Both the position numbers and the translations under genes were made by a program. The notes under the pieces are model-generated. The model searched no databases. It saw only the letters and a list, made by a program, of their open reading frames with translations, and was not told where the DNA came from. From Caldilineales bacterium (GTDB lineage: Bacteria > Chloroflexota > Anaerolineae > J102), in NCBI GenBank assembly GCA_013360575.1, contig JABWBG010000012.1, forward strand, positions 1-56,336: a stretch of DNA of 56,336 bases. The letters run 5' to 3'. Positions 17,810 through 33,731 of the stretch are shown here, one piece after another. Each line of letters opens with the position of its first letter. Positions within the stretch are counted from its first letter, which is position 1.

Positions 17810-17953
17810 AAAACGCAAAGGCGCAGAGGTACGCAAAGGTACGCAAAGTTTTTTTGTTTTTTTCTTTGCGTACCTCTGCGCCTTTGCGTTAAATCCTCAT
17901 CTTCTCTGCGTTCCTCTGCGTTCTTTGCGTTAAAATCCTGATCTTCTCTGCGT
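17810..17953. repeat. ACGCAAAG/CTCTGCGTT-type hairpin element plus degenerate direct repeats downstream of the giant gene
   Basis: 27-bp perfect stem: aacgcaaaggcgcagaggtacgcaaag (17812-17838) against ctttgcgtacctctgcgcctttgcgtt (17864-17890), with a T-rich loop. It is followed by two copies of aaatcct(c/g)atcttctctgcgtt (17891-17912 and 17932-17953). Confidence 0.85.
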
Positions 17954-17963
17954 TGAATCTCTC

Positions 17964-18746: not shown

Positions 18747-18816
18747 GGCGCTTTTCGTGGTGCGTGGTGCGTCTCGGCTAGTGTTGCGGAAGCCCTGTGT
18801 GGTTGTTTTTTGGTTC

Positions 18817-18845
18817 TTGACAGCCCGCGGGCAGGCTGCTATACT
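18817..18845 (+). promoter_or_regulatory. Near-consensus sigma70 promoter of the LacI-headed operon
   Basis: TTGACA (18817-18822), 17-nt spacer, TATACT (18840-18845). Confidence 0.65.
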
Positions 18846-18856
18846 CGCCGTAGACG

Positions 18857-18876
18857 TTGAGCACACGTGTGCTCAA
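18857..18876. promoter_or_regulatory. Perfect 20-bp palindrome, candidate LacI-family operator
   Basis: TTGAGCACACGTGTGCTCAA begins about 5 nt downstream of the predicted TSS and about 20 nt upstream of the regulator ATG. Confidence 0.6.
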
Positions 18877-18898
18877 GCATGATCAAACCGTCCCCTCC

Positions 18899-19912
18899 AT
18901 GTCCACAGGCAAAGAGATCTCCATCCGCGATATTGCCGAGGCCGCCGGCGTCAGCCACACCACGGTGAGCCGGGCGCTGCATGGCCGCGGGCGCATGCGC
19001 GCCGATACCCGCGCCCACATCCAGGCCCTGGCCGAGCAGATGGGCTACACACCCGACGTCAGGGCGCGCAGCTTGGTCAGCGGCGAGACCCGCACCATTG
19101 GCGTCGTGGTCACCACCATCGCCGATCCCTTCGTGGTGCAGATCGTGGATGGCATCGAGGCGGTGGCGCAGGCCGCGGGCTACAGCCTCTTTCTCAGCGC
19201 CTCGCACTCCGACCCGGAGCGGGAGCTGGCGGTGGTGGAAACCTTTCACCAGCGCCGTGTGGATGCGGTCATCGTCACCGCTTCACGCGTGGGCAACCTG
19301 TACGCCGCCCGTTTGAAACAGTTCGGCGCCCCGATCGTGCTGATCAACAACCTGCAGGAGGGGCCTTATCTCTATTCCGTCTCTGCCGACGATGTGGCCG
19401 GCGCGCAGTTGGCGGTGGCGCATCTGCTGGAGTTGGGGCACCGCCGCATCGCCTATCTTGGCTCCACTTCCCGGCCTATATCTTCGCTACGCCGCCAACA
19501 GGGCTACGCCGCGGCGTTGCAAGAGGCCGGCATCTCCTTCGACCCTGCTCTGGTGGCGGCCCCGGAGGCCGAGAGCGACCTGGCCGCGGGGCAGGAGGGG
19601 CTGTGGATGCTGCTGGCCGCCGCGCCCACCGCCCTTTTTGCCTACAACGACATGACCGCCATCGGCGTATTGCAGGGGGCCGCCCGCATGGGAATCGACA
19701 TTCCGGGCAAACTCAGCGTCATCGGCTTCGACGACAACGAAATCGCCCGGCTGGTGACGCCGCCGCTGAGCACCATCCACCAGCCGCAGCAGGAATTGGG
19801 GCGTCGAGCCATGCACATGGCGCTCGACTTACTGGCCAAACGCCAGATCAACGACGTCATCCTGCCTTGCACCCTTGTCCTCCGCGCCACCACCGCCTCA
19901 CCCACCCACTAA
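18899..19912 (+). CDS. LacI-family transcriptional regulator
   Basis: HTH ISIRDIAEAAGVSHTTVSRALHG, followed by a periplasmic-binding-protein-like sugar-binding domain. The ORF-track start at 18857 is a TTG inside the operator; the ATG at 18899 is preferred. Confidence 0.85.
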   Translation: MSTGKEISIRDIAEAAGVSHTTVSRALHGRGRMRADTRAHIQALAEQMGYTPDVRARSLVSGETRTIGVVVTTIADPFVVQIVDGIEAVAQAAGYSLFLSASHSDPERELAVVETFHQRRVDAVIVTASRVGNLYAARLKQFGAPIVLINNLQEGPYLYSVSADDVAGAQLAVAHLLELGHRRIAYLGSTSRPISSLRRQQGYAAALQEAGISFDPALVAAPEAESDLAAGQEGLWMLLAAAPTALFAYNDMTAIGVLQGAARMGIDIPGKLSVIGFDDNEIARLVTPPLSTIHQPQQELGRRAMHMALDLLAKRQINDVILPCTLVLRATTASPTH

Positions 19913-19915
19913 CCC

Positions 19916-19948
19916 CCCAACCAACAAACCAACCAACCAACCAACCAA
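19916..19948. repeat. (CCAA)n tract forming the leader of the Zn-dehydrogenase gene
   Basis: ccccccaaccaacaaaccaaccaaccaaccaaccaa. It has no nearby inverted partner. It is the same repeat unit as the arms of the elements at 25609-25764 and 34701-34905. Confidence 0.8.
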
Positions 19949-19959
19949 GAGATACCACC

Positions 19960-21117
19960 ATGAAAGGCTTAGTTTTGGATGCCGCCTGGCATCCCAAATC
20001 ACATTACAAAGTCAGCGACTGGGAAAAACAAACCGGCAAGGCCATCACCGGCAACAGCATCTGGCACAATCCCACTCTCGAAGTGCGCGAATGGCCCGAT
20101 CCCAAAGTCGGCCCGCAGGATGTGCTGCTGGAAATCCAGGCCTGCGGCGTCTGCGGCTCGGACATGCACTTCTACGAGACCGACGCCGACAACTACATCC
20201 TCTATCCCGGCCTCACCAAATTTCCTACCATCCTTGGCCATGAATTCTCCGGCAAGGTGGTGGAGATCGGCAAGGATGTGAAAATGCTGCAGGTCGGGGA
20301 TTACGTCACCGTCGAGGAGATGATCTGGTGCGGGCGCTGCACACCCTGCCGCAACGGCTATCCCAACCATTGCACCAATCTCGAAGAGATCGGCTTCACC
20401 ATCCCCGGCGCGTTCGCCCGATATCTGGCCGTGGATGAGAAATTCTGCTGGAAAGTGGACGGGATTCTCGACCGTTTCGGCCTGGAAAAGGGGCTGGAAG
20501 TGGCGGCCTTGAGCGAGCCGACCAGCGTCTCGTACAATGCCATGTTCACCCGCGGGGGCGGCTTCAAACCGGGCCATTTCGTCAGCGTGTTCGGGCTGGG
20601 GCCTATCGGCCTGGCCGCGGTGGGGCTGGCCGAGGCTGCCGGCGCCGGCATGATCGTCGGGTTCGAGGTCTCGGCGCAGCGCCGCCAGATCGCCAAGCAA
20701 CTGGGCGCGGACGCTCTCTTTGACCCGCGCGAAGTCAGCCCGCACGAGGTGATGAACGAGTTGAGCAAAGGCGTGGGCTTCGATTTCCATGTCGAGGCCG
20801 CGGGCGCGCCCCATCTCACCGTGCCGGAGATGGAGAAAGCGCTGGCGATCAACGGCAAGGTTATCCAGATCGGCCGCGCTGCCCAGAGGGTGCCGATGTA
20901 TTTGGAGACTTTCCAGGTGCGTCGCGGCCAGTTCTTCGGCGCGCAGGGGCATTCCGGCCACGAAAACTTCCCGAATGTGGTGCGCATGGTCGCATCCGGC
21001 CGCCTCGACCTCAGCCCCATCATCACCGCCCGTTACGGCCTCGATGACGCCGTCGCCGCCATCGCTCAATCCACCGAGCGCCGCGACGGCAAGATCATGG
21101 TCAAACCGGGGCAGTAA
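19960..21117 (+). CDS. Zn-dependent medium-chain dehydrogenase (scyllo-inosose 3-dehydrogenase IolM-like / sorbitol dehydrogenase family)
   Basis: ATG at 19960. Zn-ADH motifs ACGVCGSDMHFYE and GHEFSGKVVEIG. GLGPIGLAAVGLA Rossmann segment. Confidence 0.85.
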   Translation: MKGLVLDAAWHPKSHYKVSDWEKQTGKAITGNSIWHNPTLEVREWPDPKVGPQDVLLEIQACGVCGSDMHFYETDADNYILYPGLTKFPTILGHEFSGKVVEIGKDVKMLQVGDYVTVEEMIWCGRCTPCRNGYPNHCTNLEEIGFTIPGAFARYLAVDEKFCWKVDGILDRFGLEKGLEVAALSEPTSVSYNAMFTRGGGFKPGHFVSVFGLGPIGLAAVGLAEAAGAGMIVGFEVSAQRRQIAKQLGADALFDPREVSPHEVMNELSKGVGFDFHVEAAGAPHLTVPEMEKALAINGKVIQIGRAAQRVPMYLETFQVRRGQFFGAQGHSGHENFPNVVRMVASGRLDLSPIITARYGLDDAVAAIAQSTERRDGKIMVKPGQ

Positions 21118-21278
21118 TCAGTGGTCAGTATTCAGTAATCAGTATTCAGTAATCAGTATTCAGTAATCAGTATTCAGTGTTCGGTATTGGGTATTTGGTA
21201 TTGGGCATTCAGTGTTCAGCGATCAACGATCGCTTTTTGCTGAAAGCCAAATACCGAATACCGAATACCCAATACCAA
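21112..21278. repeat. CAGTATTCAGTAAT tandem repeat plus GGTATT/AATACC hairpin element
   Basis: Four 14-mers span 21126-21181. The arm ttcggtattgggtatttggtattggg is complementary to ccaaataccgaataccgaatacccaatacc (21247-21276). Confidence 0.85.
21218..21238 (+). terminator. Canonical intrinsic terminator nested in the loop of the repeat element
   Basis: agcgatc-aac-gatcgct followed by ttttt. Confidence 0.6.
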
Positions 21279-21294
21279 GCAAAGGAGTTAGAAG

Positions 21295-22311
21295 ATGCCC
21301 GAAAAACTCACTCTCGGCCTGATCGGGGCCGGGCGGATCGGACGGCTGCACGGCGAGCACCTGGCCCGGCGCCTGCCTGCAGCGGACCTGCTGGCGGTCT
21401 CCGACATCTTCGTGGACGCGGCGCAGCGTCTGGCCGCGGACTTCGGTCTGCCGCACGCCTACGCCGACCACCGCCGCATCCTCGACGACCCCGCCATCGC
21501 CGCGGTCGTGATCTGCTCCAGCACCGACACGCACGCGCAGATGATCATCGACGCCGCCGAAGCGGGCAAGCATATCTTCTGCGAAAAGCCGATCCACCTG
21601 GATCTGGCCGAGATCGACCGGGCGCTGGCCGCGGTGGAGAAGGCCGGGGTCAAGCTCCAGGTCGGGTTCAACCGCCGTTTTGACCCAAATTTCCGGCAGG
21701 CGCGGGAGATCGTGGCCTCTGGCGGCATCGGCGAGCCGCAGATCGTGCGCATCACCAGCCGCGACCCGGCGCCGCCGCCGATCGGCTACATCCAGGTCTC
21801 CGGCGGCATCTTCCTCGATCAGACCATCCACGATTTCGACATGGCCCGCTTCCTGCTGGCCGATGAGGTGGAGGAAATCTTCGCCGTCGGCGGGGTCATG
21901 GTCGATCCGGCTATCGGCGAGGCCGGGGACATCGACACCGCCCTGATCACGCTGCGCTACCGCGGCGGGGCGCTGGGCAGCATCGACAACAGCCGCCGGG
22001 CCGTGTACGGTTACGACCAGCGCGTGGAGGTCTTCGGCTCCGAGGGCGTGGTCACGGTCGCAAACGCCAAACCGGACACCGCCGTCCATCTCAACTCGAC
22101 CGGAGAACACGCCGCCCTGCCCCTCTTCTTCTTCGTCGAGCGCTACACCGAGTCCTATCTGGCCGAAATGCGCGAGTTCATCACCTGTGTGCGCGAAGAC
22201 CGCACCCCGCCCGTCACCGGCCACGATGGCCGCATCCCCGTGGTGATGGGCTACGCGGCGAAGCGCTCATATGATGAGAACAGGCCTGTGAAACTGAGTG
22301 ATATCGAGTAA
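21295..22311 (+). CDS. Gfo/Idh/MocA oxidoreductase (inositol 2-dehydrogenase-like)
   Basis: AAGGAG at 21282-21287. LGLIGAGRIGRLHGEHL, HIFCEKPI and FNRRFDPNF are typical of IolG-type dehydrogenases. Confidence 0.8.
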   Translation: MPEKLTLGLIGAGRIGRLHGEHLARRLPAADLLAVSDIFVDAAQRLAADFGLPHAYADHRRILDDPAIAAVVICSSTDTHAQMIIDAAEAGKHIFCEKPIHLDLAEIDRALAAVEKAGVKLQVGFNRRFDPNFRQAREIVASGGIGEPQIVRITSRDPAPPPIGYIQVSGGIFLDQTIHDFDMARFLLADEVEEIFAVGGVMVDPAIGEAGDIDTALITLRYRGGALGSIDNSRRAVYGYDQRVEVFGSEGVVTVANAKPDTAVHLNSTGEHAALPLFFFVERYTESYLAEMREFITCVREDRTPPVTGHDGRIPVVMGYAAKRSYDENRPVKLSDIE

Positions 22312-22318
22312 CAAAAGC

Positions 22319-22380
22319 TATTGGATATTGGGTATTAGATATTTTTACACTCAAACAAATATCTGATATCCAATACCAAA
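22319..22380. repeat. AT-rich GGATATTGGGTATT / AATACCAA imperfect hairpin
   Basis: ctattggatattgggtattagatattt .. aaatatctgatatccaataccaaa. A related single arm is at 24736-24758. Confidence 0.6.
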
Positions 22381-22409
22381 CAACCAATAAAGGACAAAAA
22401 AGCTAAAAA

Positions 22410-23555
22410 ATGGAGAAATCCCTCATGACAACTATGCCCAAAGGCTGGCTTGCATCCAGCAATCCCACCGTTATCTTCGAAGACAACCACATCGGCCACA
22501 TGAAAAAGGCGCTGTTCGAGGCCGACGAGGCCACGCTCGACGCGGTGCTGGCCGAGTACGGCATGGCGCCGGGGGCTGTGCCGCCGGTGGAGTGGAGCAA
22601 ACCGGGCACCTACATCCAGATGATGACGCGGCGGCAGCTGATCGAAGAGCGTCGCAAAAACGACATCATCCTCGTGCCCATCGGTTGCACCGAGAACCAT
22701 GGCTTGCACCTGCCCAGCGCCACCGACACCCTCTTCGTCAGCCAGATCATCGAGGGCGTGCGCCGCTATTTCCGCAAGCAGGACATCCCCATCGCCCTGT
22801 CGCTGCCCCCGCTGAATTTCGGCGCGCATCCCTACCATCACTACGGCATGCCCGGCACCGTGCCCGTGCGCGAAGACATCGCCCGCGAGATGCTGATTGA
22901 CATGATGCTGGGATTGTGGAACGATGGCTTCCGCAAGATCATCATGCTCAATAACCACGGCCATCTGTGGATGCTGGAGGCGGCGGTGCAGCAGTTCCAG
23001 AAGCGCTACCACCTCCCCGGCATCTTCCGGGCCATGGACTGGCACCGGGCCGTGCGCGAGAGCTTCTACACCCACGACCGCGGGGGCGATTACGGCAGCA
23101 ACTTCGTCCACGCCGAAGAAGCGGAGACCTCGTTGGCCCTCTATCTCTTCCCCGACATGGTGGAGATGGCACTGGCCGTGAACACCAAAGGCAAGTCTTA
23201 TCTCAAGGAGGGCCACTTCGACACCTCGGTCGATCCCTATCACCGGCCCGGTCGCTGGTCGGAAGGCGAGGGCCACTTTGCTATCGAACTATCGGCCACC
23301 CCCGAAGGCGTGGTGGGCAACGCCGCCGACGCTGACGCCGCCAAGGCCAAGCGGCCCCTGGCCATGATCCTGCGCTATCTCACCCTGCTGATCGAAGACA
23401 TCCGCGCCGCGTTCCCGCCCGGCGTGCTGCCTCCGGTCGAGGAAGTGACCCTACGCACTGCCGCCGAGATGGAACCCTACCTGCGCGAGCCGCAGAGCGA
23501 AGGCTGGAAACCGGTCTACGCCCTGCCCCGCATCGGCCAGAGCAATATTTTTTAA
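22410..23555 (+). CDS. Creatininase-fold amidohydrolase family protein (IolN-like candidate)
   Basis: ILVPIGCTENHGLHLPSATDTLF and NNHGHLWM motifs. The second ATG at 22425 has the better GGAG spacing, so the true start may be 22425. Confidence 0.75.
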   Translation: MEKSLMTTMPKGWLASSNPTVIFEDNHIGHMKKALFEADEATLDAVLAEYGMAPGAVPPVEWSKPGTYIQMMTRRQLIEERRKNDIILVPIGCTENHGLHLPSATDTLFVSQIIEGVRRYFRKQDIPIALSLPPLNFGAHPYHHYGMPGTVPVREDIAREMLIDMMLGLWNDGFRKIIMLNNHGHLWMLEAAVQQFQKRYHLPGIFRAMDWHRAVRESFYTHDRGGDYGSNFVHAEEAETSLALYLFPDMVEMALAVNTKGKSYLKEGHFDTSVDPYHRPGRWSEGEGHFAIELSATPEGVVGNAADADAAKAKRPLAMILRYLTLLIEDIRAAFPPGVLPPVEEVTLRTAAEMEPYLREPQSEGWKPVYALPRIGQSNIF

Positions 23556-23558
23556 GTA

Positions 23559-23718
23559 GCAGTGGTCAGTATTCAGTATTCAGTATTCAGTAATCGGTAA
23601 TCAGTGGGCGGGCAGGCAACCCAGCGGTCGAAACTCTGCCCACTGACTACTGAATACTGAATACTGAATACTGAATACTGCCCACTGATTACTGACCACT
23701 GACTACTGACTACTGACC
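23559..23718. repeat. Long CAGTATT/AATACTG heptamer-repeat hairpin running up to the next start codon
   Basis: The left arm (23559-23615), cagtattcagtattcagtattcagtaatcggtaatcagtgggcgggcag, is the inverted repeat of ctgcccactgactactgaatactgaatactgaatactgaatactg.. (23636-23718). The ATG of the next gene is at 23719, with no SD. Confidence 0.9.
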
Positions 23719-24732
23719 ATGCCTGATCTTCGCATCGCCGTGATCGGCGCCGGCCGCATCGGCCTCGTCCACGCCGCCAACATCGCCCACCGGGTGCGCG
23801 GGGCCGCGCTCGTGGCCGTGACCACAGCAAATCCCGACCGGGCAGCCGCGGTTCGCCAGATTTTCGGGCCGGAGCTGGCCATCTATCCCAACCTGGCCGG
23901 CTTGCTCGCGCAGGAAACCCTCGACGCCGTGGTCATCGCCAGCAGCACTGCCGCGCACCGCGCCAATATCGAGGCCTGCGCCGCCGCCGGTCTGCACATC
24001 TTCTGCGAGAAACCGCTGGCCCTGAGCCTGCCCGATTGCGACGCCGCCATCCTCGCCAGCGAACAGGCCGGGATCAAGCTGATGGTCGGGCATGTGCGCC
24101 GATTCGATCCCGCGGCCATCGCGGCCAAACAGCGTATCGCTGCCGGCGACATTGGCCGGCCCATCGTCTACCGCGCCATCGCCGGCGACCAGGATCCGCC
24201 CCCACCCAGCTTCGCCGATCCCACCGTCAGCGGCGGCCTGATTACCGATGCCGGCTACCACGACTTGTACCTGGCCCGCTGGCTGATGGAGGATGAGATC
24301 GTGCGGGTCTACGCCGAGGGTGGGGCGCTGGTAGCCCCGGAGATCGGCGCGGTGGGCGACGTGGACAACGCCATCGTCGATTTTCGCTTTGCCCGCGGCG
24401 GGCTGGGCACGCTGTACGTCAGCCGCACCACGCGCTACGGCCATGATGTGCGCGTGGAAGTGATCGGCAGCGAGGGGGCCATGCACATCGGCCAGTTGCG
24501 CCGCACCCCGGTCAATCTGCTCACCCGCGGCGGCGTCAGCCACGATGTCATCCCCGACACCGCCGCCCGTTACGCCGAGGCCTTTGTCGCCGAGCTGCAA
24601 GCCTTTGTCGATTGCGTACGCCACGACACGCCGCCGCCGGTCAGCGGCCAGGACAGCCGCACGGTCGTCGCCATCGGCCTCGCCGCCCGCAAATCCCATC
24701 AACAAGGCGAAATCGTGTATGTGCTTCAATAA
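23719..24732 (+). CDS. Gfo/Idh/MocA oxidoreductase, second inositol dehydrogenase-like paralog
   Basis: IAVIGAGRIGLVHAANI, HIFCEKPL and HVRRFDP. Paralogous to 21295-22311. Confidence 0.8.
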   Translation: MPDLRIAVIGAGRIGLVHAANIAHRVRGAALVAVTTANPDRAAAVRQIFGPELAIYPNLAGLLAQETLDAVVIASSTAAHRANIEACAAAGLHIFCEKPLALSLPDCDAAILASEQAGIKLMVGHVRRFDPAAIAAKQRIAAGDIGRPIVYRAIAGDQDPPPPSFADPTVSGGLITDAGYHDLYLARWLMEDEIVRVYAEGGALVAPEIGAVGDVDNAIVDFRFARGGLGTLYVSRTTRYGHDVRVEVIGSEGAMHIGQLRRTPVNLLTRGGVSHDVIPDTAARYAEAFVAELQAFVDCVRHDTPPPVSGQDSRTVVAIGLAARKSHQQGEIVYVLQ

Positions 24733-24765
24733 TCAATATCCAATACCAAATATCTAATAACCAGC

Positions 24766-25608
24766 ATGAACCTAGCGCAAATCAGCCAAAACTACGATTT
24801 CAGTGGCCGTACGATTGTAATCACCGGCGGGGGCGGGGTGCTGGGCGGCGAGATCGCCGCGACCCTGGCCGGCTGTCATGCCAACATCGCCATTCTCGAC
24901 CGGGACATGCGCTTAGCCGAGCGGGCGGCGCAGCGCATCGCCGAATTGCCGGGCATGCAGGCGCGGGCCGTGGCGATCGATGCCGATGTGCTCGACAAAG
25001 CCTCGTTGGCCAAGGCCGAAGCCCGCGTACACAGCGAATTTGGCCGCGTCGACGGCCTGATCAACGCCGCCGGCGGCAACAAACCGCAGGCCACCACCTC
25101 GCCCGACCTCGCTTTCTTCGACCTGCCCGCGGAGGCGCTGCGCTTTGTCTTCGACCTGAACATCCTGGGCACGATCCTGCCCAGCCAGGTGTTTGGGCGG
25201 GGCATGGCCGCGCAGCAGGAGGGCGTGATCCTGAATATCTCTTCGATGAACGCGTTTCGTCCGCTCACCCGCATCCCCGCCTACTCCGCGGCCAAGGCCG
25301 GCGTCAGCAATTTTACGCAGTGGCTGGCGGTGCACATGGCCCAGGAATACTCCCCGCGCATCCGTGTCAACGCCATCGCGCCCGGCTTCTTCCTCACCGA
25401 GCAGAACCGCTTCCTGCTCACCGACACTGCCACCGGCGAGCTGACCCCGCGCGGCCAGACGATCCTGGCGCACACGCCCATGGCCCGCTTCGGCGACCCC
25501 GCCGACCTGCTGGGCGCGGTGCTGTGGCTGCTCTCCCCCCTCTCCCAATTCGTCACCGGCATCGTCCTCCCCATCGACGGCGGCTTCTCGGCCTTTAGTG
25601 GGGTTTAG
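24766..25608 (+). CDS. SDR-family oxidoreductase (D-mannonate / gluconate 5-dehydrogenase-like)
   Basis: VITGGGGVLGGEIA (TGxxxGxG), NAAG, and the YSAAKAGVSNFTQWLA catalytic YxxxK. Confidence 0.8.
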   Translation: MNLAQISQNYDFSGRTIVITGGGGVLGGEIAATLAGCHANIAILDRDMRLAERAAQRIAELPGMQARAVAIDADVLDKASLAKAEARVHSEFGRVDGLINAAGGNKPQATTSPDLAFFDLPAEALRFVFDLNILGTILPSQVFGRGMAAQQEGVILNISSMNAFRPLTRIPAYSAAKAGVSNFTQWLAVHMAQEYSPRIRVNAIAPGFFLTEQNRFLLTDTATGELTPRGQTILAHTPMARFGDPADLLGAVLWLLSPLSQFVTGIVLPIDGGFSAFSGV

Positions 25609-25764
25609 GTTGGTTGGTTAGTTGGTTAGTTGGTTGGTTAGTTGGTTGGTGGGGATTGCCGATAAACACGCAAACCTACCAATTTACCAATCTACCAATT
25701 TACCAATCTACCAATTTACCTACCAACCAACAAACAAACCAACCAACTAACAAACTCCCCCCCC
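25609..25764. repeat. TTGG / CTACCAAT / CCAA composite hairpin element with conserved core
   Basis: The (TTGGTTAG)n arm (25609-25653) is followed by the core ggtggggattgccgataaacacgcaaac, then 3 x ctaccaatttaccaat, then a (CCAA)n arm that runs up to the ATG at 25765. Confidence 0.9.
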
Positions 25765-27027
25765 ATGCTCACCTCCCACGCCCATCCCACCCAAACCTTG
25801 ACCGAACCCGACGTGCGGGGGCTGTTGCAGCGCGGGTTGGGGCAGATCGACGTGAGCGGCAAACGCCTGCTCGTGCTCATCCCCGATGGCACACGCAGCG
25901 GCCCCATCCCCCTGTTTTTCCGGCTGATCCACGAAATTCTCGGCGGCGAAGTGGCCGCGCTCGATTACCTGATCGCCCTGGGCACACACCAGCCCATGCC
26001 CTCCGCAGCCATCGCGCGGTTGACCGGGGCCTCCGCGGCGGACATGGCCGGGCGCTACCGGAATGTGCGGGTGCTGAACCACGCCTGGCAACACCCCGAC
26101 ACCTTCGTCACCCTGGGCGTCATCCCCGCCGCCGAGATCGAAGGACTGAGCAACGGCCTGTTCGCCATGCCCGTGCCGGTGGCGCTGAACCGCCTGGTGC
26201 TCGATTACGACCACATCCTGATCTGCGGGCCGGTCTTCCCACACGAGGTGGCGGGGTTCTCCGGGGGCAACAAATACTTCTTCCCCGGCATCGCCGGCCA
26301 GGAGATCATCGACTTCACCCACTGGCTGGGCGCGCTGATCACCAATTACGAGATCATCGGCGTCAAACACACCCCCGTGCGCGCCGTGATCGAGCGCGCC
26401 GCCGCCATGATCCCCACGCCCACCTCCGCCATCTGCTTCGTGGTCACAGAGAACGACCTGCACGGCGTCTTCACCGGCCCGGTCGTCGAAGCCTGGGCCG
26501 CGGCCGCAGACCTCGCCGCCCAAACTCACATCCTCTGGGTCGATCGCGCCTACGATCAAGTGCTCTCGGTCATGCCCCGGCTGTACGACGACATCTGGAC
26601 CGCGGCCAAAGGCATGTACAAGCTGGAGCCGGTGATCGCGGATGGCGGTCGGGTGACGATCTACGCCCCGCACATCGACGAGATCTCCTACACCCACGGC
26701 CGCATCCTCGATGAGATCGGCTACCACGTGCGCGATTACTTCGTCAAACAGTGGGATCGCTTCAAACACTACCCCTGGGGCGTGCTGGCGCATTCCACGC
26801 ACTTGCGCGGCATGGGCGCCTACGAAAACGGCGTCGAAACCCCACGCGTCGATGTCAGCCTGGCCACCGCCATCCCCCCCGAACGGGTGCGCCGGGTCAA
26901 TCTCGACTACACGAATCCCGCCGCCATCCGCCCTGAAGCGTGGGCCGGACAAGAGGATGCCGGCATTCTGCTCGTCCCCCATGCCGGCGAGATGCTCTAC
27001 CGGCTGAAACCGGAGGCGGCGCGATGA
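25765..27027 (+). CDS. LarA-family (nickel-pincer nucleotide-dependent) 2-hydroxyacid racemase/epimerase homolog
   Basis: LLVLIPDGTRSGP (LarA: DHTRPVP), ALGTHQPM (LarA: ATGFHRP), and VAGFSGGNKYFFPGIAG (LarA: FAGFSGGRKSVLPGIAS), which includes the Lys that tethers the cofactor. Confidence 0.75.
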   Translation: MLTSHAHPTQTLTEPDVRGLLQRGLGQIDVSGKRLLVLIPDGTRSGPIPLFFRLIHEILGGEVAALDYLIALGTHQPMPSAAIARLTGASAADMAGRYRNVRVLNHAWQHPDTFVTLGVIPAAEIEGLSNGLFAMPVPVALNRLVLDYDHILICGPVFPHEVAGFSGGNKYFFPGIAGQEIIDFTHWLGALITNYEIIGVKHTPVRAVIERAAAMIPTPTSAICFVVTENDLHGVFTGPVVEAWAAAADLAAQTHILWVDRAYDQVLSVMPRLYDDIWTAAKGMYKLEPVIADGGRVTIYAPHIDEISYTHGRILDEIGYHVRDYFVKQWDRFKHYPWGVLAHSTHLRGMGAYENGVETPRVDVSLATAIPPERVRRVNLDYTNPAAIRPEAWAGQEDAGILLVPHAGEMLYRLKPEAAR

Positions 27028-28544
27028 ACAGCGGCGCGGGCGTGATCCCGGCTCATCAGGCCGAGCCGCCGCTGGTGCTGGCGCTGGATGTGGGCAGCTC
27101 ATCCATCCGGGCGTTGGTTTTCGACCGGTTGGGCCGGGCGATCGCTGGGCTTGAGGCGAAGGAGCCGCATGCGTTCCGCACCGACGCGGCCGGCGCATCT
27201 GAGGCCGACCCCGACGCGCTGCTGCAATTGATCTTCGCCTGCATCGACCGCGCGTTGCAGGCGGCAGGCCCGCTGGCAAATGCCATCGCCGCGGTGGCCG
27301 CCGATACTTTTGTCAACAACATCCTCGGCATCGACGCGCATGGGCGGGCCATCACCCCACTGACCACCTATGCCGACACCCGCGCCGCCGGCGAGGTGGC
27401 GGGCCTGCAAGCCGATTTCGCCGAAGCCGAGACGCACAACCGCACCGGCTGCCGCTTCCATCCCAGCTATCTGCCCGCCCGCCTGCGCTGGCTGCACCGG
27501 GCCGATCCCGACCTTTTTCGCGCGGTCGCCCGCTGGGTCTCGCTGGACGAATACCTCAAGCTGGCCCTGTTCGGCGAGGCCGCGGTCAGCACCTCGGTGG
27601 CAGCCTGGACCGGCCTGCTCGATCGGCGGCGGCTGATCTGGGATGAGCCATTGCTGGCGGGGCTGCCGATTACAGCCGGACAACTGTCGCCCCTGGTCGA
27701 TGCCGATGCCGGCCAGCAGGGAGTGCGCCCAGTTTTTGCCCGGCGCTGGCCCTCGCTGGCGCAGATCCCCTGGTTCCCGGCCATCGGCGATGGCGCCGCG
27801 GCCAACCTGGGCTGCGGCTGCGTCGGCCCGGAGCGCGTGGCCCTGACCGTGGGCACCTCCAGCGCTCTGCGCGCGGTGGCCGTCGCCGATGCCCCGCAAC
27901 TGCCCTCCGGTTTGTGGTGCTATCGCGTCGATGCCCGGCGTTCGTTGCCCGGCGGGGCTTTGACCGAGGGCGGGTCGGTCTACGCCTGGATGCGCCAGAC
28001 CCTGCAATTGGACGATCCCGCGGCGGTGGAGCAGGCATTGGCGGCAATGCGCCCGGATGGGCATGGGCTGACCCTGCTGCCCCTGTTCGCTGGCGAGCGC
28101 AGCCCCGGCTGGGTCGGACACGCCCGCGCCACATTTCATGGCCTGACGTTGGCGACCACGCCCCTGCACCTGCTGCGGGCCGGGCTGGAAGCCGTGGCCT
28201 ATCGCATTGCCCTGGTCTACGCCCAGTTGCGGCCGCTGTTGCCCGCCGAGCCGGAGATCATCGCCGGGGGTGGGGCGCTGCTGGCCTCGCCGGCCTGGTT
28301 GCAAATCATGGCCGATGTGCTGGGCCGGCCCGTCATCGCCTCGGCTGCGCCCGAAGCGACGGCCCGCGGCGCCGCGCTGCTGGCGCTCGAGGCCATCGCC
28401 GCGCTGCCCGACCTATCACAGGCCCCGGTTTTCACCGGCGATGCCTATCTGCCCAACCCCGACCATCACGCCATCTACACCGCCGCCATTGCCCGCCAAC
28501 AGCACCTGTACCAGCGGGTGACCATCCTGACACTTGACACTTGA
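27024..28544 (+). CDS. FGGY-family carbohydrate kinase (gluconokinase-like)
   Basis: ATG at 27024 overlaps the LarA-homolog stop (ATGA). LALDVGSSSIRALVFD, AIGDGAAANLGCG and IIAGGGALLASPAWLQIMADVLGRPV. Confidence 0.8.
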   Translation: MNSGAGVIPAHQAEPPLVLALDVGSSSIRALVFDRLGRAIAGLEAKEPHAFRTDAAGASEADPDALLQLIFACIDRALQAAGPLANAIAAVAADTFVNNILGIDAHGRAITPLTTYADTRAAGEVAGLQADFAEAETHNRTGCRFHPSYLPARLRWLHRADPDLFRAVARWVSLDEYLKLALFGEAAVSTSVAAWTGLLDRRRLIWDEPLLAGLPITAGQLSPLVDADAGQQGVRPVFARRWPSLAQIPWFPAIGDGAAANLGCGCVGPERVALTVGTSSALRAVAVADAPQLPSGLWCYRVDARRSLPGGALTEGGSVYAWMRQTLQLDDPAAVEQALAAMRPDGHGLTLLPLFAGERSPGWVGHARATFHGLTLATTPLHLLRAGLEAVAYRIALVYAQLRPLLPAEPEIIAGGGALLASPAWLQIMADVLGRPVIASAAPEATARGAALLALEAIAALPDLSQAPVFTGDAYLPNPDHHAIYTAAIARQQHLYQRVTILTLDT

Positions 28545-28568
28545 CACCTGGCACCTGACACCTCCCCC

Positions 28569-29216
28569 CTACCCCTCCGCCGCGGCAAACACCTCCGCCA
28601 CATCCACGGCAAAGCCCTGCAGCAGCACCGACGTGGCCTGCTGGCCCGGCGTGAAGCGGCCATGTTCAGCGTAGCGATCCCCTGCCAGCGTCAGCACCAG
28701 GATCTCCGCCCGCTCTTGATCGACAATCCAATACTCGGGGATGCCTGCCTGCGCATACTCCCGCCGCTTCGTTTCCGTGTCGTGCCGCCGATCCTTTGGG
28801 CTGACCACCTCCATCACCAAATCCGCGCCGATCCAGAAACTTTCGGTGCGCCGTGAGGCATTTTTCCGGGCCATAAACACCAAATCTGGCTCGCGGAACT
28901 TACCCGGCCATAGCCGCACTCGTAAAGGAGCAAACAAAACCAGTCCTAATCTCTGCGCCAAAACAAACTGCTCCAATAGCTTGAACAGCAGTCTTGTGAT
29001 CAGTTGGTGTGATTGAGTCGGCATCGGAACCACCTCCAAATGGCCGTGCGAGAATTCGATCAGGTGATTGGTATCCAACGCCAGATATTCTTCCTCGTCC
29101 CAATGCCCCTGCGCCCGATGTTCCAGGTCGGTTCTGCCTCCTCTGGTCGCAGATATTCGAGTGTTTGCATACATGCCTCCGTGAGCGAAACGGCTATCAG
29201 GCCCCGATCCTATCAT
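28569..29216 (-). CDS. Uma2-family (DUF820, PD-(D/E)xK-like) putative endonuclease, copy A
   Basis: EEYLALDTNHLIEFSHGHLEVVPMP, FREPDLVF, ADLVMEVVSPKD and IPEYWIVD. ATG at 29216 after GAGGAA. Confidence 0.75.
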   Translation of the reverse strand: MIGSGPDSRFAHGGMYANTRISATRGGRTDLEHRAQGHWDEEEYLALDTNHLIEFSHGHLEVVPMPTQSHQLITRLLFKLLEQFVLAQRLGLVLFAPLRVRLWPGKFREPDLVFMARKNASRRTESFWIGADLVMEVVSPKDRRHDTETKRREYAQAGIPEYWIVDQERAEILVLTLAGDRYAEHGRFTPGQQATSVLLQGFAVDVAEVFAAAEG

Positions 29217-29292
29217 AATTTCCTCACCCTGTCGAACCCCCTCTGCCCCATACCATCCTGACACTTGACACCTGGCACCTGACACCTCCCCC

Positions 29293-29949
29293 CTACCCCT
29301 CCGCCGCGGCAAACACCTCTGCCACATCCACGGCAAAGCCCTGCAGCAGCACCGACGTGGCCTGCTGGCCCGGCGTGAAGCGGCCATGTTCAGCGTAGCG
29401 ATCCCCTGCCAGCATCAGCACCAGGATCTCCGCCCGCTCTTGATCGACAATCCAATACTCGGGGATGCCCGCCTGCGCGTACTCCCGCCGTTTCGTTTCC
29501 GTGTCGTGCCGCCGATCCTTTGGGCTGACCACCTCCATCACCAAATCCGCGCCGATGAAATACTGTTCGGTCTTGCGATCTCGATGCGATGCGAGCATGA
29601 ACACAACATCTGGTTCCCGAAATTTTCCCGACCACAATTGCACGCGCAGCGGCGAAGTCAAAGCCTCGCCCAGCCTCCGGCTTTTCACAAATCGAGACAG
29701 AACTTGTACCAGAAAAAGGACAATGCGTTGATGCGATAAGGTCGGCATCGGAACCACCTCCAAATGGCCGTGCGAGAATTCGATCAGGTGATTGGTATCC
29801 AACGCCAGATATTCTTCCTCGTCCCAATGCCCCTGCGCCAGAGTTGCGCGATGTTCCAGGTCGGTTCTGCCTCCTCCGGTCGCAGATATTCGAGTGTTTG
29901 CATACATGCCTCCGTGAGCGAAACGGCTATCAGGCCCCGATCCTACCAT
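29293..29949 (-). CDS. Uma2-family putative endonuclease, copy B
   Basis: Same N- and C-terminal sequence as copy A with a divergent middle (..SHQRIVLFLVQVLSRFVKSRRLGEALTSPLRVQLW..). ATG at 29949. Confidence 0.75.
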   Translation of the reverse strand: MVGSGPDSRFAHGGMYANTRISATGGGRTDLEHRATLAQGHWDEEEYLALDTNHLIEFSHGHLEVVPMPTLSHQRIVLFLVQVLSRFVKSRRLGEALTSPLRVQLWSGKFREPDVVFMLASHRDRKTEQYFIGADLVMEVVSPKDRRHDTETKRREYAQAGIPEYWIVDQERAEILVLMLAGDRYAEHGRFTPGQQATSVLLQGFAVDVAEVFAAAEG

Positions 29950-29981
29950 AATTTCCTCACCCTGTCGACCCCCTCTACCCC

Positions 29982-30800
29982 ATGAAACTCTCACTCGTCC
30001 TCTCCACCCAACCAGCGCGGTTCGACGCCGTGGCCTTCAAAGGCGACCTGGCCGCCAATTTTGCCAAGATCGCCGGCTGGGGCTATGACGGCGTCGAACT
30101 CGCTATCCGCGATCCCCGGCTGGTCGACGCCGAAGCCATCGCCGATCTCGCTCGCGGGCACGGCCTAGCCATCCCCGCCATCGGCACCGGCCAGGCCTGG
30201 GGCGAAGAGGGCCTCTCCTTCACCGATCCCGATCCGGCCATCCGTGACGCCGCTATCGCTCGCGTGCACAGCCACATCCCCCTGGCCGCTCGTTTCGAGG
30301 CCGTGATCATCATCGGCCTGCTGCGCGGGATCGTGCGGCCGGGGCTGGCGCCGGGCCAGGCCATGGCCCTGCTGGTCGATGCATTGCGACAAAACTGCGC
30401 CGCCGCCGCCGAACAGGGCGTGCGCATCGCCCTGGAGCCGATCAATCGCTACGAGACCACCCTGATCAACACCGTGGCCGAGGGTTTGGAACTGATCGAA
30501 AAGGTCGGAGCGCAAAATTTGGGCTTGCTGCTCGACACCTTCCACATGAACATCGAGGAGCCTGCGATCGAGGCCAGCATCGCCGCGGCGGGAGACCGTA
30601 TCTTCCACTTCCACGTAGCCGATTCCAATCGCTGGCCGCCCGGCGGCGGGCACATCGACTTCCGCTCCGTACTCGACGCCCTGTTTGCCGCCGGCTACGA
30701 CGGCTTTGTCTCCGGCGAGTTCCTGCCCCGGCCCGACGCGGACAGCGCCGCGGGCCAGGCCATCACTTTTCTTCGCTCACTTTCTCCTTTCCATGATTAG
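29982..30800 (+). CDS. Xylose-isomerase-like TIM-barrel sugar isomerase/epimerase (IolO-like 5-keto-L-gluconate epimerase candidate)
   Basis: YDGVELAI, RIALEPINRYET, LLDTFHMNIEE and FHFHVADSNR (metal-binding E/D/H/E pattern of the AP-endonuclease-2/TIM family). Confidence 0.75.
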   Translation: MKLSLVLSTQPARFDAVAFKGDLAANFAKIAGWGYDGVELAIRDPRLVDAEAIADLARGHGLAIPAIGTGQAWGEEGLSFTDPDPAIRDAAIARVHSHIPLAARFEAVIIIGLLRGIVRPGLAPGQAMALLVDALRQNCAAAAEQGVRIALEPINRYETTLINTVAEGLELIEKVGAQNLGLLLDTFHMNIEEPAIEASIAAAGDRIFHFHVADSNRWPPGGGHIDFRSVLDALFAAGYDGFVSGEFLPRPDADSAAGQAITFLRSLSPFHD

Positions 30801-32298
30801 CGAATTGTTTTTTTCTCTTGATTTAGAGGTTACTGAACAGATAGCCTTATGGCTACACGAAATCAGCGATCTGGCAATCTATCCACGCTCATTGGCCACG
30901 GCCAACCAGGCCTTGTTTGCCCTGGGCCGGGCTGGTGCTGCCAAGAAACTGATCATCGTCAGCCGCGGCGACCAGCCGCCGCCGCCCGGATTCAGTGGCG
31001 AGACGCGCGCCGTCGGCGAGTTGCGCCTGACCCTCTGCCCCACCAGCGCGGCCCATGCCGCCGCGCTCCGCGTAGCCCTTGACTACACGAAGCCATCCTG
31101 TCTGGGGCTGGCAACCTCGGTTGGCTGCGGCGATCGGTTGGGTCTGGCCACGCCGGGGCACATCCAGGCCGTGGCCGGAACCGGTGTGCGGCCCATCCTG
31201 GCCCAGCAATCGATGCGCGAGAACGCCCGCACCGGCCGCACGCCGCAGCAAGTGATCGACGACGCCACCTGGGGCGTGTTCGAGGCGGGCTGGCGGCAGG
31301 GCTACGGCGCCGACGCCGATCATCTCAAAACCACGGCGCATATCGATGCCTGCGTGGCCGCCGGCTACACCTTTTTCACCATCGATCCCGGCGACCATGT
31401 GCAGGATGAGGCCCACACCGCCCCGCCCGCCCATCTTGCAGACATCGTGGCGGCCCTGCCCTGGGCCAGTCTGGAGAGCAACCTTGCGGACTTGCGCGCC
31501 CGCTATCTGGGCCCGGTTTTCGATCTGGACGAAGGGACGCGCATCGCCTTCGACGAAGAGACGCTGTTGCGGGCCGCGGGCAAATATGGCCGGGCCATCG
31601 CCCACACCGCCCGCATGGCCCGCCATCTGGCCGGGCTGACCCCGGATTTCGATCTGGAGATGTCGGTGGACGAGACCGAAACGGTGACATCGGCGGCAGA
31701 GCATTTCTTCATTGCCAACGAGTTGCGGCGGCTGGGCGTGCGCTGGGTCAGTCTGGCGCCCCGCTATGTGGGCCGGTTCGAAAAAGGCGTGGATTACATC
31801 GGCGATCTGGCCGCGTTCGAGGCCAGTTTGGCCCAGCACGCTGCCATCGCCCGCAGCCTTGGCCCCTACAAACTCAGCATCCATTCTGGCTCCGACAAAT
31901 TCAGCATCTACCCGGCCTTTGCCCGGCAGACCGGCGGCCTGGTGCACCTGAAAACCGCGGGAACCAGCTATCTGGAGGCGCTGCGCGTGGCGGCGCAGGC
32001 CGAGCCGGATCTTTTCCGCCGCATCCTCGCTCTGGGCATCGAACGGTATCCCGCCGAACGGGCGACCTACCACGTCTCCGCCGATCTGGCCCGTGTGCCC
32101 GATCCCGCCGCGGTCGCCGACTCCGATCTGCCCCGCTATCTGGATCAGTCCGACGCCCGGCAGGTTCTGCACGTCACCTATGGGGCGGCGCTGGCCGCGT
32201 TTGGCGACGACCTGATCGCCGTGCTACGCTGGCATGAAGAGGCGCATTACGCTGCCCTCGCCGGCCATTTTCGCCGGCATCTACAGTCATTTTTTTGA
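30793..32298 (+). CDS. uxaE: Tagaturonate/fructuronate epimerase (UxaE-like)
   Basis: ATG at 30793 overlaps the upstream gene by 8 nt. GYGADADHLKT, KLSIHSGSDKFSIYP and HLKTAGTSYLEAL resemble the UxaE family as I remember it. Confidence 0.6.
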   Translation: MISELFFSLDLEVTEQIALWLHEISDLAIYPRSLATANQALFALGRAGAAKKLIIVSRGDQPPPPGFSGETRAVGELRLTLCPTSAAHAAALRVALDYTKPSCLGLATSVGCGDRLGLATPGHIQAVAGTGVRPILAQQSMRENARTGRTPQQVIDDATWGVFEAGWRQGYGADADHLKTTAHIDACVAAGYTFFTIDPGDHVQDEAHTAPPAHLADIVAALPWASLESNLADLRARYLGPVFDLDEGTRIAFDEETLLRAAGKYGRAIAHTARMARHLAGLTPDFDLEMSVDETETVTSAAEHFFIANELRRLGVRWVSLAPRYVGRFEKGVDYIGDLAAFEASLAQHAAIARSLGPYKLSIHSGSDKFSIYPAFARQTGGLVHLKTAGTSYLEALRVAAQAEPDLFRRILALGIERYPAERATYHVSADLARVPDPAAVADSDLPRYLDQSDARQVLHVTYGAALAAFGDDLIAVLRWHEEAHYAALAGHFRRHLQSFF

Positions 32299-32345
32299 CG
32301 AAGGACGAAAGATCGCATCATTGCCTCATCGTAAGGAGCCTACGC

Positions 32346-33731
32346 ATGAACGACTATCGCATCGAAAAAGATTCTCTGGGCGAGGTGCGGGTGCCCGCGG
32401 GCGCGCTCTACGGCGCCCAAACCCAACGCGCAGTGGATAATTTCCAGATCAGCGGCCTCCTCTTCCCCCGCAGTTTCATCCGGGCGCTGGGCCTGGTCAA
32501 GGCTGCCTGCGCCCAGGCGAACCAGGATCTGGGCCTGATGGAGGAGGCGATGGCCGCGGCGATTCAGCAGGCCGCGCAGGAGGTGGCCGCGGGCCAGCAC
32601 GATGCCCACTTCCCTCTCGACATCTTCCAGACCGGCTCCGGCACCAGCACGAACATGAACGCCAACGAGGTGATCGCGGCCCTGGCCAGTCGCGCCCTGG
32701 CCGCGGGCGTGCACCCGAACGATCATGTGAATATGAGCCAGTCTTCCAACGATGTCATCCCCACAGCCATGCACGTGGCCGCGTATCTGGAAGCGCAGGA
32801 GGCGCTGCTGCCCGGCCTACAACAGCTCTATGATGCTCTGATCGAAAAGGCGGCGGCGGTGGATGACGTGGTCAAGACCGGGCGCACCCATCTGATGGAC
32901 GCCATGCCGCTGCGGCTGAGCCAGGAGCTGGGGGGCTGGGCCACGCAGATCGGTAAAGGCATGGTGCGGGTGGAGGGGGCGCTGGCCAGCGTGGCCGGAT
33001 TGGCGCTGGGCGGCACCGCGGTGGGCACCGGCATCAATGCTCATCCTGCGTTCGGGGCCCGCGTCGCCGCGGTGCTGGCCGAGCGCACCGGCTACCCCTT
33101 CGCGGCCAACGATAACTTCTTCGAAGCTCTCTCCTCCGCCGATGCCATGGTGGAGCTGAGCGGCCAGATCAAAACGGTCGCGGCCAGCCTGATGAAGATC
33201 GCCAACGACCTGCGCTGGATGAACTCTGGCCCCCTTGCCGGCCTGGCCGAGATCAGCCTGCCGGCGTTGCAGCCCGGATCCAGCATCATGCCCGGCAAGA
33301 TCAATCCGGTGATCCCGGAGGCGGTGATGATGGTCTGCGCGCAGGTGATCGGCAACGATGTGACGGTGACGATCGGCGGCATGTCGGGCAATTTCCAGTT
33401 GAATGTGATGCTGCCGGTGATCGCGTACAACGTGCTGCAAGCAGAGAGGCTGCTGGGCCGGGCCGCGGCGGCGCTGGCTGATAAAGCTATCGCCGGCTTC
33501 AGCGTCAACCGCGAGCGCGTGGCCGCGCTGGTGGACAAAAATCCCATTCTGGTCACCGCGCTCAACCCGGTGATCGGCTATGAAATGGGCGCGCAGGTGG
33601 CCAAAACCGCGTACGCGCAGGGCCGCAGTCTGAAGGAAGTGGCGGCGGAGCTGACCGACCTGACGCCGGCAGAATTGGATGCCCTGCTCGACCCGGCCAA
33701 GCTAACGCGCGGGGGCATCCAATCGGCCTGA
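32346..33731 (+). CDS. Class II fumarase/aspartase superfamily lyase (aspartate ammonia-lyase-like signature)
   Basis: AAGGAG before the ATG at 32346. RIEKDSLGEVRVPAGALYGAQTQRA and the signature GSSIMPGKINPVIPE (NPV.PE resembles aspartase; fumarase has NPTQCE). Confidence 0.85.
   Translation: MNDYRIEKDSLGEVRVPAGALYGAQTQRAVDNFQISGLLFPRSFIRALGLVKAACAQANQDLGLMEEAMAAAIQQAAQEVAAGQHDAHFPLDIFQTGSGTSTNMNANEVIAALASRALAAGVHPNDHVNMSQSSNDVIPTAMHVAAYLEAQEALLPGLQQLYDALIEKAAAVDDVVKTGRTHLMDAMPLRLSQELGGWATQIGKGMVRVEGALASVAGLALGGTAVGTGINAHPAFGARVAAVLAERTGYPFAANDNFFEALSSADAMVELSGQIKTVAASLMKIANDLRWMNSGPLAGLAEISLPALQPGSSIMPGKINPVIPEAVMMVCAQVIGNDVTVTIGGMSGNFQLNVMLPVIAYNVLQAERLLGRAAAALADKAIAGFSVNRERVAALVDKNPILVTALNPVIGYEMGAQVAKTAYAQGRSLKEVAAELTDLTPAELDALLDPAKLTRGGIQSA

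Follow-up and report, generated by a model that had tools for sequence, protein, structure and literature searches.

A Chloroflexota gene cluster that probably carries myo-inositol to 6-phosphogluconate through a GntE-type LarA homolog

Introduction

How does carbon leave a gene cluster for inositol and hexuronate degradation that carries none of the genes by which D-mannonate is usually broken down? This question is raised by positions 18817-32298 of a 56,336-nt contig with 64% G+C from a metagenome-assembled genome (MAG) of Caldilineales (Chloroflexota; proteins NUQ36585-NUQ36597). The contig was analyzed over its full length and is referred to here as the window. A first-pass annotation, made from the sequence without database searches, had matched several of the genes to the inositol route of Thermotoga maritima. 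It proposed an exit in which D-fructuronate is reduced to D-mannonate, epimerized to D-gluconate by a homolog of LarA and phosphorylated to 6-phosphogluconate. From profile searches, structural matches, residue conservation and the gene neighborhoods of relatives, we conclude that the cluster probably specifies every soluble enzyme needed to convert myo-inositol to 6-phosphogluconate, in two modules that are both known from T. maritima.

Results

Gene content of the cluster

Profile searches of each open reading frame (ORF), which the first-pass annotation had proposed as a check, were run with Pfam and NCBIfam. The families obtained are given below, and every element that had been listed for the + strand lies at its position and in its order:

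18817-18845, +, sigma-70-type promoter (TTGACA at 18817-18822, 17-nt spacer, TATACT at 18840-18845)
18857-18876, perfect 20-bp palindrome TTGAGCACACGTGTGCTCAA just 3' of the -10 hexamer, candidate LacI-family operator
18899-19912, +, LacI-family transcriptional regulator (Pfam LacI plus Peripla_BP_1/3/4)
19960-21117, +, IolM, scyllo-inosose 3-dehydrogenase, a zinc-dependent alcohol dehydrogenase (Zn-ADH; NF041097)
21295-22311, +, IolG, myo-inositol 2-dehydrogenase of the Gfo/Idh/MocA family (TIGR04380)
22425-23555, +, IolN, 3-dehydro-scyllo-inosose hydrolase of creatininase fold (NF041098, Pfam Creatininase; start codon adopted from the called gene in locus L081)
23719-24732, +, second inositol-dehydrogenase paralog (Gfo/Idh/MocA), below the IolG cut-off
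24766-25608, +, UxuB-type short-chain dehydrogenase/reductase (SDR), probable fructuronate reductase / D-mannonate oxidoreductase (NF006132)
25765-27027, +, LarA-superfamily Group 19 enzyme, GntE-type (Pfam Lar_N)
27024-28544, +, FGGY-family kinase, probable gluconokinase, GntK (Pfam FGGY_N and FGGY_C)
29982-30800, +, IolO, 5-keto-L-gluconate epimerase, a TIM barrel (NF041099)
30793-32298, +, UxaE, tagaturonate/fructuronate epimerase (Pfam PF16257)

Two junctions can be read directly in the sequence as overlaps: the stop codon of the larA homolog and the start codon of the kinase gene share ATGA, and the end of iolO overlaps the start of uxaE by 8 nt (ATGATTAG). A Pfam scan of all ORFs of at least 230 aa and of unassigned ORFs of at least 110 aa detected no uxuA, kdgK, kdgA/eda, edd, gnd, larB/C/E or sugar transporter gene in the 56-kb window. 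Mannonate dehydratase, 2-keto-3-deoxygluconate (KDG) kinase and 2-keto-3-deoxy-6-phosphogluconate aldolase are thus missing from it, as had been noted before.

The inositol module is defined by equivalog models. IolM scores 528 bits with NF041097 (cut-off 450) and has 3IP1 as its top match in the Protein Data Bank (PDB; E = 1.6e-99), IolG reaches 455 bits with TIGR04380 (cut-off 355; top match 3EZY, E = 2e-117), IolN 302 bits with NF041098 (cut-off 245) and IolO 339 bits with NF041099 (cut-off 300; top match 2ZVR, T. maritima TM_0416, E = 1.7e-67). The match to the T. maritima enzymes is thereby confirmed for all four proteins, among them the Zn-ADH and the creatininase-fold protein, on whose kinship with IolM and IolN the first-pass annotation had staked its reading. 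The second Gfo/Idh/MocA dehydrogenase obtains 307 bits with the IolG model, under the cut-off of 355. Its top PDB match is likewise 3EZY (E = 3.7e-65), with inositol dehydrogenases next, and homologs of 60% identity are placed between iolM and iolN in two related loci, L064 and L080. No cluster gene was assigned to IolA, IolB, IolC, IolD, IolE or IolJ by Pfam and NCBIfam.

Two further enzymes would connect the inositol module to mannonate. UxaE matches PF16257 with 493 bits over profile positions 1-473 of 475, and its nearest solved relatives are UxaE structures (9LHU, E = 8e-115; 6IL9, E = 1e-94), in line with its earlier description as a UxaE-like epimerase. The SDR, previously considered a candidate for the conversion of fructuronate to mannonate, passes the D-mannonate oxidoreductase model NF006132 over its full length (362 bits, cut-off 281), a model defined at the subfamily level and not as an equivalog. 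Among its PDB matches, 4WUV (E = 2e-72) stands far above 1VL8 (E = 1e-28), which we take to be TM0441 (UxaD) of T. maritima.

A Group 19 LarA homolog coupled to an FGGY kinase

The enzyme at the proposed exit matches Pfam Lar_N (PF09861) with 65.1 bits (cut-off 23.3). Its top PDB match, full length over residues 32-416, is 4NAR (E = 4e-54), which is T. maritima GntE2, a D-gluconate 2-epimerase (PMC7583248). We compared the protein with reference sequences carrying the group labels of Dataset S2 of Desguin et al. 2020 and obtained the following identities:

Roseiflexus Rcas_3031, Group 19: 61%
Nostoc Npun_F5335, Group 19: 57%
Truepera Trad_0660, Group 19: 55%
Corynebacterium glutamicum GntE1 (LarAH19, characterized), Group 19: 46%
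T. maritima GntE2, Group 20: 33%
Group 18 member: 29%
LarA, Group 1: 23%

In an alignment with LarA and members of Groups 18-20, residues D41, R44, H75, H160, K170, H186 and K282 correspond to LarA D72, R75, H108, H174, K184, H200 and K298. All seven of these catalytic or nickel-pincer nucleotide (NPN)-binding residues are invariant across 23 close relatives. The pocket signature of Group 19 is also kept, with E-V after the catalytic histidine, V, W-T-A-K and G-L-A-S-T-H-R. Signature positions 1-13 are identical to the Group 19 rows. For the last seven (G339, L341, A342, S344, T345, H346 and R348), where LarA was gapped in the MAFFT alignment, the comparison with Rcas_3031 and Dataset S2 was made by eye. 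Residue conservation, signature and identities together identify the protein as a GntE-type member of Group 19 in the nickel-pincer superfamily.

Two other group placements were considered and rejected: Group 18, whose model NF052594 ("nickel-dependent putative hexonate epimerase") gives 155 bits against a cut-off of 500, and Group 20, given the low identity to GntE2. An N-terminal frameshift, suspected from a Pfam match that begins at profile position 52, was dismissed because the NCBIfam hexonate-epimerase model aligns from position 2.

Mannonate/gluconate 2-epimerase activity has been measured among LarA homologs only for GntE1, GntE2, LarAH15 and LarAH10, GntE1 having been assayed as a D-gluconate 2-epimerase. 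Placement in Group 19 and the identity to GntE1 support the hypothesized interconversion of D-mannonate and D-gluconate, and the window protein is probably a nickel-pincer-dependent D-mannonate/D-gluconate 2-epimerase.

For the FGGY kinase, the best-scoring model is the gluconokinase model TIGR01314, although at 211.5 bits the match lies under the cut-off of 648.55; the xylulokinase model yields 192 bits (cut-off 380). Its top PDB match is the gluconate kinase 3GBT (E = 1e-48), compared with E = 4e-33 for a xylulokinase, and the protein is named gluconokinase at NCBI. Its earlier description as gluconokinase-like therefore holds with respect to its nearest relatives, the FGGY gluconate kinases, but does not extend to the gluconokinase equivalog. 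Gene context makes specificity for gluconate probable.

From these assignments we infer the substrates, the direction of flux and the order of epimerase and kinase. IolG would convert myo-inositol to scyllo-inosose, and another inositol isomer might be the substrate of the second paralog. IolM would then form 3-dehydro-scyllo-inosose, IolN would open the ring to give 5-dehydro-L-gluconate, IolO would turn this intermediate into D-tagaturonate, and UxaE would yield D-fructuronate. The UxuB-type SDR would take D-fructuronate to D-mannonate, the Group 19 LarA homolog would invert C2 by a nickel-pincer hydride shuttle to give D-gluconate, and the translationally coupled FGGY kinase would phosphorylate the latter to 6-phosphogluconate, which would enter central metabolism by the pentose-phosphate or the Entner-Doudoroff pathway. 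Homology and, as described below, comparative genomics thus lend support to the proposed sequence from fructuronate through mannonate and gluconate to 6-phosphogluconate.

Conserved neighborhoods in relatives

When one genome per species was scanned, close relatives of the LarA homolog turned up in at least 590 stretches of DNA, distributed over Chloroflexota, Acidobacteriota, Planctomycetota, Verrucomicrobiota, Spirochaetota and other phyla. Neighborhoods were counted in the best 80 of these. A UxuB-type SDR gene lies on the same strand in 51 of the 80 loci, a Pfam-confirmed 6-phosphogluconate dehydrogenase gene (gnd) at a median of 92 nt downstream in 41, uxaE nearby in 32 and a PFK-family (phosphofructokinase) gene in 17. 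An FGGY kinase gene follows directly in 10 loci, and IolO, IolN and IolM are encoded in nine, eight and six of the 80, respectively. The neighbor clusters that recur in at least six loci and were checked with Pfam are Gnd, PFK, molybdopterin oxidoreductase and PfkB.

Combined clusters holding both the inositol and the hexuronate modules are present in several phyla. A locus labeled Deltaproteobacteria (L049) has them in a single run, uxaE-iolM-iolN-iolO-SDR-larAH-FGGY-gnd, where larAH denotes the larA homolog, and a Thermoanaerobaculia locus (L064) has the order MFS-pfkB-iolM-gfo-iolN-iolO-uxaE-SDR-larAH-gnd-pfk. In the relative L083, with a LarA homolog of 88% identity, the gene order of the window is kept, including one Uma2-family gene (see below) and fumC after uxaE.

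A PFK-family (PF00365) gene comes after gnd, itself downstream of the larA homolog, in 17-25 of the 80 loci. Loci with this gnd-PFK arrangement are mostly without an FGGY kinase gene, examples being L064 (11319-14000), L004, L008 and L013.

Promoter, operator and LacI-family regulator

The near-consensus promoter and the 20-bp palindrome reported for the 5' end of the cluster are both present. The promoter matches 11 of 12 consensus positions, has a TG 5' of the -10 hexamer and is the top site across 18500-34000. The palindrome TTGAGCACACGTGTGCTCAA occurs once in the window even when up to three mismatches are allowed, and in none of 100 shuffles. Four independent related loci contain its exact 12-bp core GCACACGTGTGC, six times in all (L018 at 1234; L021 at 711; L058 at 2718 and 9859; L067 at 6582 and 13846), which belong to unrelated Chloroflexota and to a MAG labeled Syntrophothermus. 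By our own estimate (length / 4^12), about 0.1 exact matches would be expected by chance in the 1.27 Mb searched. At four of the six sites an iolM or lacI homolog follows immediately downstream, and this recurrence suggests a conserved motif of a LacI-family regulon. Beyond these loci, a search of metagenome contigs with the 16-nt operator core gave 91 matches, none of them from the source organism or next to genes with meaningful identity to those of the cluster; the full 20-mer was found alone on three metagenome contigs of 54% GC.

The regulator combines an N-terminal LacI helix-turn-helix with an effector domain resembling periplasmic binding proteins, and the palindrome lies at its promoter. 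It scores below every NCBIfam equivalog cut-off, and its NCBI name is LacI family regulator. The palindrome is likely a LacI-family operator. The regulator probably represses the first genes of the cluster, if not more of them; it would bind the palindrome where this overlaps the transcription start of the strong promoter. That this repressor responds to an effector, and that the genes are co-transcribed across the hairpins and antisense genes described next, we likewise infer.

Repeat hairpins and antisense Uma2 genes

Further elements lie between the cistrons of the cluster:

21112-21276, +, long intercistronic hairpin of inverted heptamer tandem repeats (Tandem Repeats Finder, TRF; -57.9 kcal/mol, z -5.4)
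23556-23717, +, long intercistronic hairpin of inverted heptamer repeats (TRF; -88.5 kcal/mol, z -12)
25608-25755, +, long intercistronic hairpin in which a GGTTGGTTAGTT array faces a CTACCAATTTACCAAT array (TRF; -56.1 kcal/mol, z -5.1)
28569-29174, -, Uma2-family (PF05685) gene, copy 1, outside the pathway
29293-29907, -, Uma2-family gene, copy 2 (tandem, mosaic duplicate), outside the pathway

At the apex of the first hairpin, a terminator-like stem is followed by a T-run (21218-21234). The gap between the SDR gene and the larA homolog contains arrays at the same place in L083, where the 5' unit is different and again complementary to the 3' unit. Most of the intergenic gaps examined in the window are occupied by tandem repeats with units of 4-8 nt. 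Heptamers predominate among these units (for example CAGTATT, ACTGACT and CCTGACA), and the repeats often come as a pair of oppositely oriented arrays that form a long hairpin (-56 to -88 kcal/mol, z -5 to -12). Further gaps filled in this way are 4161-4204, 11499-11556, 17813-17965, 19917-19948, 28526-28563, 29257-29287, 33733-33773, 34707-34904, 38399-38553 and 54566-54680. These repeats resemble the short tandemly repeated repetitive (STRR) heptamer repeats of cyanobacteria. An Rfam scan found no known RNA family in the cluster, and its sub-threshold matches to microRNA precursors are the long repeat hairpins.

The 1.4-kb insertion that the first-pass annotation had seen as interrupting the cluster (28545-29981) consists of the two - strand Uma2-family genes. 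They form a tandem duplication of about 724-733 bp whose units are 95-98% identical at both ends and diverged in the middle, and each unit bears the same promoter-like site. A single copy occupies the same position in L083, and contigs from other assemblies of the source organism stop at this position. Start codons at 29251 and 29983 were rejected as out of frame; the genes start at 29174 and 29907. We also considered a cyanobacterial origin of the contig, prompted by the Uma2 genes and a hairpin resembling GCGATCGC, and discarded it, as HIP1 occurs in 5 copies with 4.4 expected and is not enriched, and the proteins belong to a Caldilineales MAG.

Flanking genes

The cluster is followed on the same strand by one further gene:

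32346-33731, +, class II fumarase, fumC (Pfam Lyase_1 plus FumaraseC_C)

This gene starts 47 nt 3' of uxaE, an arrangement shared with the 88% relative (L083, 7966-9351). It is possibly co-transcribed and has no evident role in the pathway. In Table S1 of Desguin et al., 86% of Group 20 gntE genes have COG1027, the aspartase/fumarase family, as a neighbor, and the adjacency of a fumarase gene in the window could be a coincidence or a functional link.

On the 5' side, the flank consists of housekeeping genes (infB, rbfA, truB, ribF, thyX, folD, aspS, a giant amidase and scpA), while fumC on the 3' side is accompanied by genes for a ROK protein, an EamA transporter, uvrA and histidine kinases. 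A 449-aa ORF (4316-5665) unites FAD synthetase and riboflavin kinase with a C-terminal Archease domain and looks like a RibF-archease fusion. The thyX gene (Thy1, PF02511; - strand, 5778-6760) is split over two reading frames, with 5778-6563 covering profile positions 49-190 and 6296-6760 covering positions 9-65, which could reflect a frameshift, a pseudogene or an assembly error. Positions 13497-17804 encode a 1435-aa protein with three N-acetylmuramoyl-L-alanine amidase domains, and 41502-45896 a 1464-aa histidine kinase with four GAF domains. A Baseplate_J-like ORF (55102-56325) lies at the contig end.

Discussion

Relation to known pathways

The first-pass annotation had regarded the exit through a LarA-family epimerase and a gluconokinase as undescribed for inositol or hexuronate catabolism. 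This view does not stand. According to the accounts available in PMC7583248, PMC6978723 and PMC3750489, Rodionova et al. 2012 proposed GntE and GntK as the link from mannonate to 6-phosphogluconate in the hexuronate network of T. maritima. GntE activity was shown in 2020 for the T. maritima and C. glutamicum enzymes (Desguin et al., PMC7583248), and further homologs followed in 2024. Since every step is already described in T. maritima, the cluster is a new example and not a new pathway. What is modestly new is the union of the IolGMNO and UxaE-UxuB-GntE-GntK modules in one LacI-associated cluster, seen in several phyla. The literature searched contained no report linking a gluconate 2-epimerase specifically to inositol, and no description of the IolMNO pathway outside Thermotoga.

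The inositol operon of T. maritima, TM0411-TM0416, encodes IolR, IolM, IolN, IolG, TM0415 and IolO (Rodionova et al. 2013, as cited in PMC5931981). Its route ends at D-tagaturonate and has the same intermediates up to this point as those proposed for the window. Both systems contain IolM, IolN, IolG and IolO, and the window homologs pass cut-offs built for these enzymes. In contrast to TM0411-TM0416, the window cluster is without a ROK-family IolR, a PfkB kinase (TM0415 homolog) and an ABC transporter, includes an additional inositol-dehydrogenase paralog, and is contiguous with downstream hexuronate and gluconate genes.

For tagaturonate, the T. maritima genome also carries a uxaE-uxaD-gntE-gntK operon, given more fully as aldH-pelB-gnd-uxaRED-gntEK (PMC3750489). 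Like the window, this hexuronate module leads from tagaturonate through fructuronate, mannonate and gluconate to 6-phosphogluconate and has the local order SDR, LarA homolog, FGGY kinase. The two differ in their epimerases, which belong to Group 19 in the window and to Group 20 (GntE2) in T. maritima, in their reductases (UxuB-type by NF006132 versus UxaD) and in their regulators (LacI-family with its own operator versus the GntR-family UxaR). Moreover, gnd is part of the T. maritima operon and of loci related to the window but does not occur in the window itself, and only in the window is the hexuronate module joined to inositol genes.

With C. glutamicum GntE1, the window protein shares membership in Group 19 and identical catalytic and NPN-binding residues. 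Their 20-residue signatures differ once, at the position of LarA P355 (L in the window, I in GntE1). The published genomic context of Group 19 is mostly actinobacterial and comprises LarB/E (33%), LacI (24%) and glucuronate isomerase (24%), whereas the window and the 80 loci feature a UxuB-type SDR, UxaE, Gnd, an FGGY kinase and Iol genes. The Ashwell pathway (UxuA-KdgK-KdgA) has the same starting point, mannonate, but its three families were not found in the window. Bacillus subtilis iolABCDEFGHIJ likewise starts from myo-inositol with IolG as the first enzyme and differs in the chemistry after scyllo-inosose.

Weighing the proposed route

Several points weigh against the route as proposed. 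For D-mannonate the Km of GntE1 is 120 mM, and those who characterized the enzyme expressed doubt that this is its native substrate. The FGGY kinase falls under the curated cut-offs of both the gluconokinase and the xylulokinase models, and the SDR would not be an ortholog of T. maritima UxaD if 1VL8 is UxaD as we assume. Genes for LarB, LarC and LarE were not found within the window, nor were gnd, edd/eda or an inositol transporter gene. The intercistronic hairpins, of which one has a terminator-like apex, the Uma2 genes that break into the cluster with 1.4 kb in antisense, and the single operator copy in the window leave room for doubt that there is one co-regulated transcript.

The same end product would be reached if the last two steps ran in reverse, with the FGGY enzyme acting as a mannonate kinase and the LarA homolog as a 6-phosphomannonate 2-epimerase. 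The galacturonate pathway of Lactobacillus suebicus offers a precedent (PMC6978723). As proposed for the window, it connects mannonate to 6-phosphogluconate and bypasses UxuA-KdgK-KdgA; in contrast to the epimerase-first order proposed for the window, its extracts phosphorylate mannonate before epimerizing 6-phosphomannonate to 6-phosphogluconate, the genes for both activities being unidentified. A reversed order would explain the high Km of GntE1 for free mannonate as well as the tendency of this clade to be followed by gnd (41 of the 80 loci) more often than by a kinase gene, and the score of the FGGY kinase under the gluconokinase equivalog cut-off is in keeping with it. However, GntE1, GntE2 and LarAH15 all epimerize unphosphorylated mannonate, the ATGA-coupled order of epimerase and kinase genes equals that of T. 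maritima gntE-gntK, and in the literature found no LarA homolog is reported to be active on a phosphorylated substrate. We therefore consider the reversed order unlikely; if true, it would assign genes to the two enzyme activities that are still orphans in L. suebicus.

A different substrate for the LarA homolog, such as an aldarate, a uronate or another hexonate, is a distinctly improbable reading, in which mannonate would leave through UxuA-KdgK-KdgA encoded elsewhere and the kinase would serve another substrate. The 56-kb window covers only part of the genome, and a PfkB (KdgK-like) kinase gene lies near the LarA homolog in six of the 80 loci, both of which this reading could accommodate. 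The strongest neighbors, namely the mannonate-oxidoreductase-type SDR, UxaE, Gnd and the gluconokinase-like FGGY enzyme, point instead to mannonate and gluconate, and no aldarate dehydratase was among the Pfam-checked neighbor clusters recurring in at least six loci, smaller clusters not having been scanned. Very improbable, in our estimate, is that the genes are mere neighbors, transcribed separately or decayed by the Uma2 insertion, with iolO and uxaE not co-expressed with the rest. Such an arrangement would fit the lone operator, the long hairpins in three intercistronic gaps with their one terminator-like apex, and the two antisense genes with promoter-like sites of their own between gntK and iolO. 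Yet all ORFs are intact, and the 88% relative preserves both the order and a single Uma2 gene at the same place. Similar repeat hairpins occur in most intergenic gaps, which makes them a trait of the genome and not damage to an operon. A route through free mannonate and gluconate, encoded by one functional cluster, is thus the interpretation that we favor.

Implications

The value of the finding lies mainly in annotation, as it leaves known chemistry unchanged and maps the spread of the Thermotoga-type inositol route. If the proposed route is correct, the oxidative-hydrolytic inositol pathway of the T. maritima type would extend to Chloroflexota, Acidobacteriota and a MAG labeled Deltaproteobacteria, where it would be wired straight to 6-phosphogluconate and the pentose-phosphate pathway and not to the KDG branch. 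For the Group 19 clade, large, mostly unnamed and usually annotated as "DUF2088" or "lactate racemase domain", gene context would then lend support to the view that its members are genuine mannonate/gluconate epimerases, a point left open by the discoverers of the clade.

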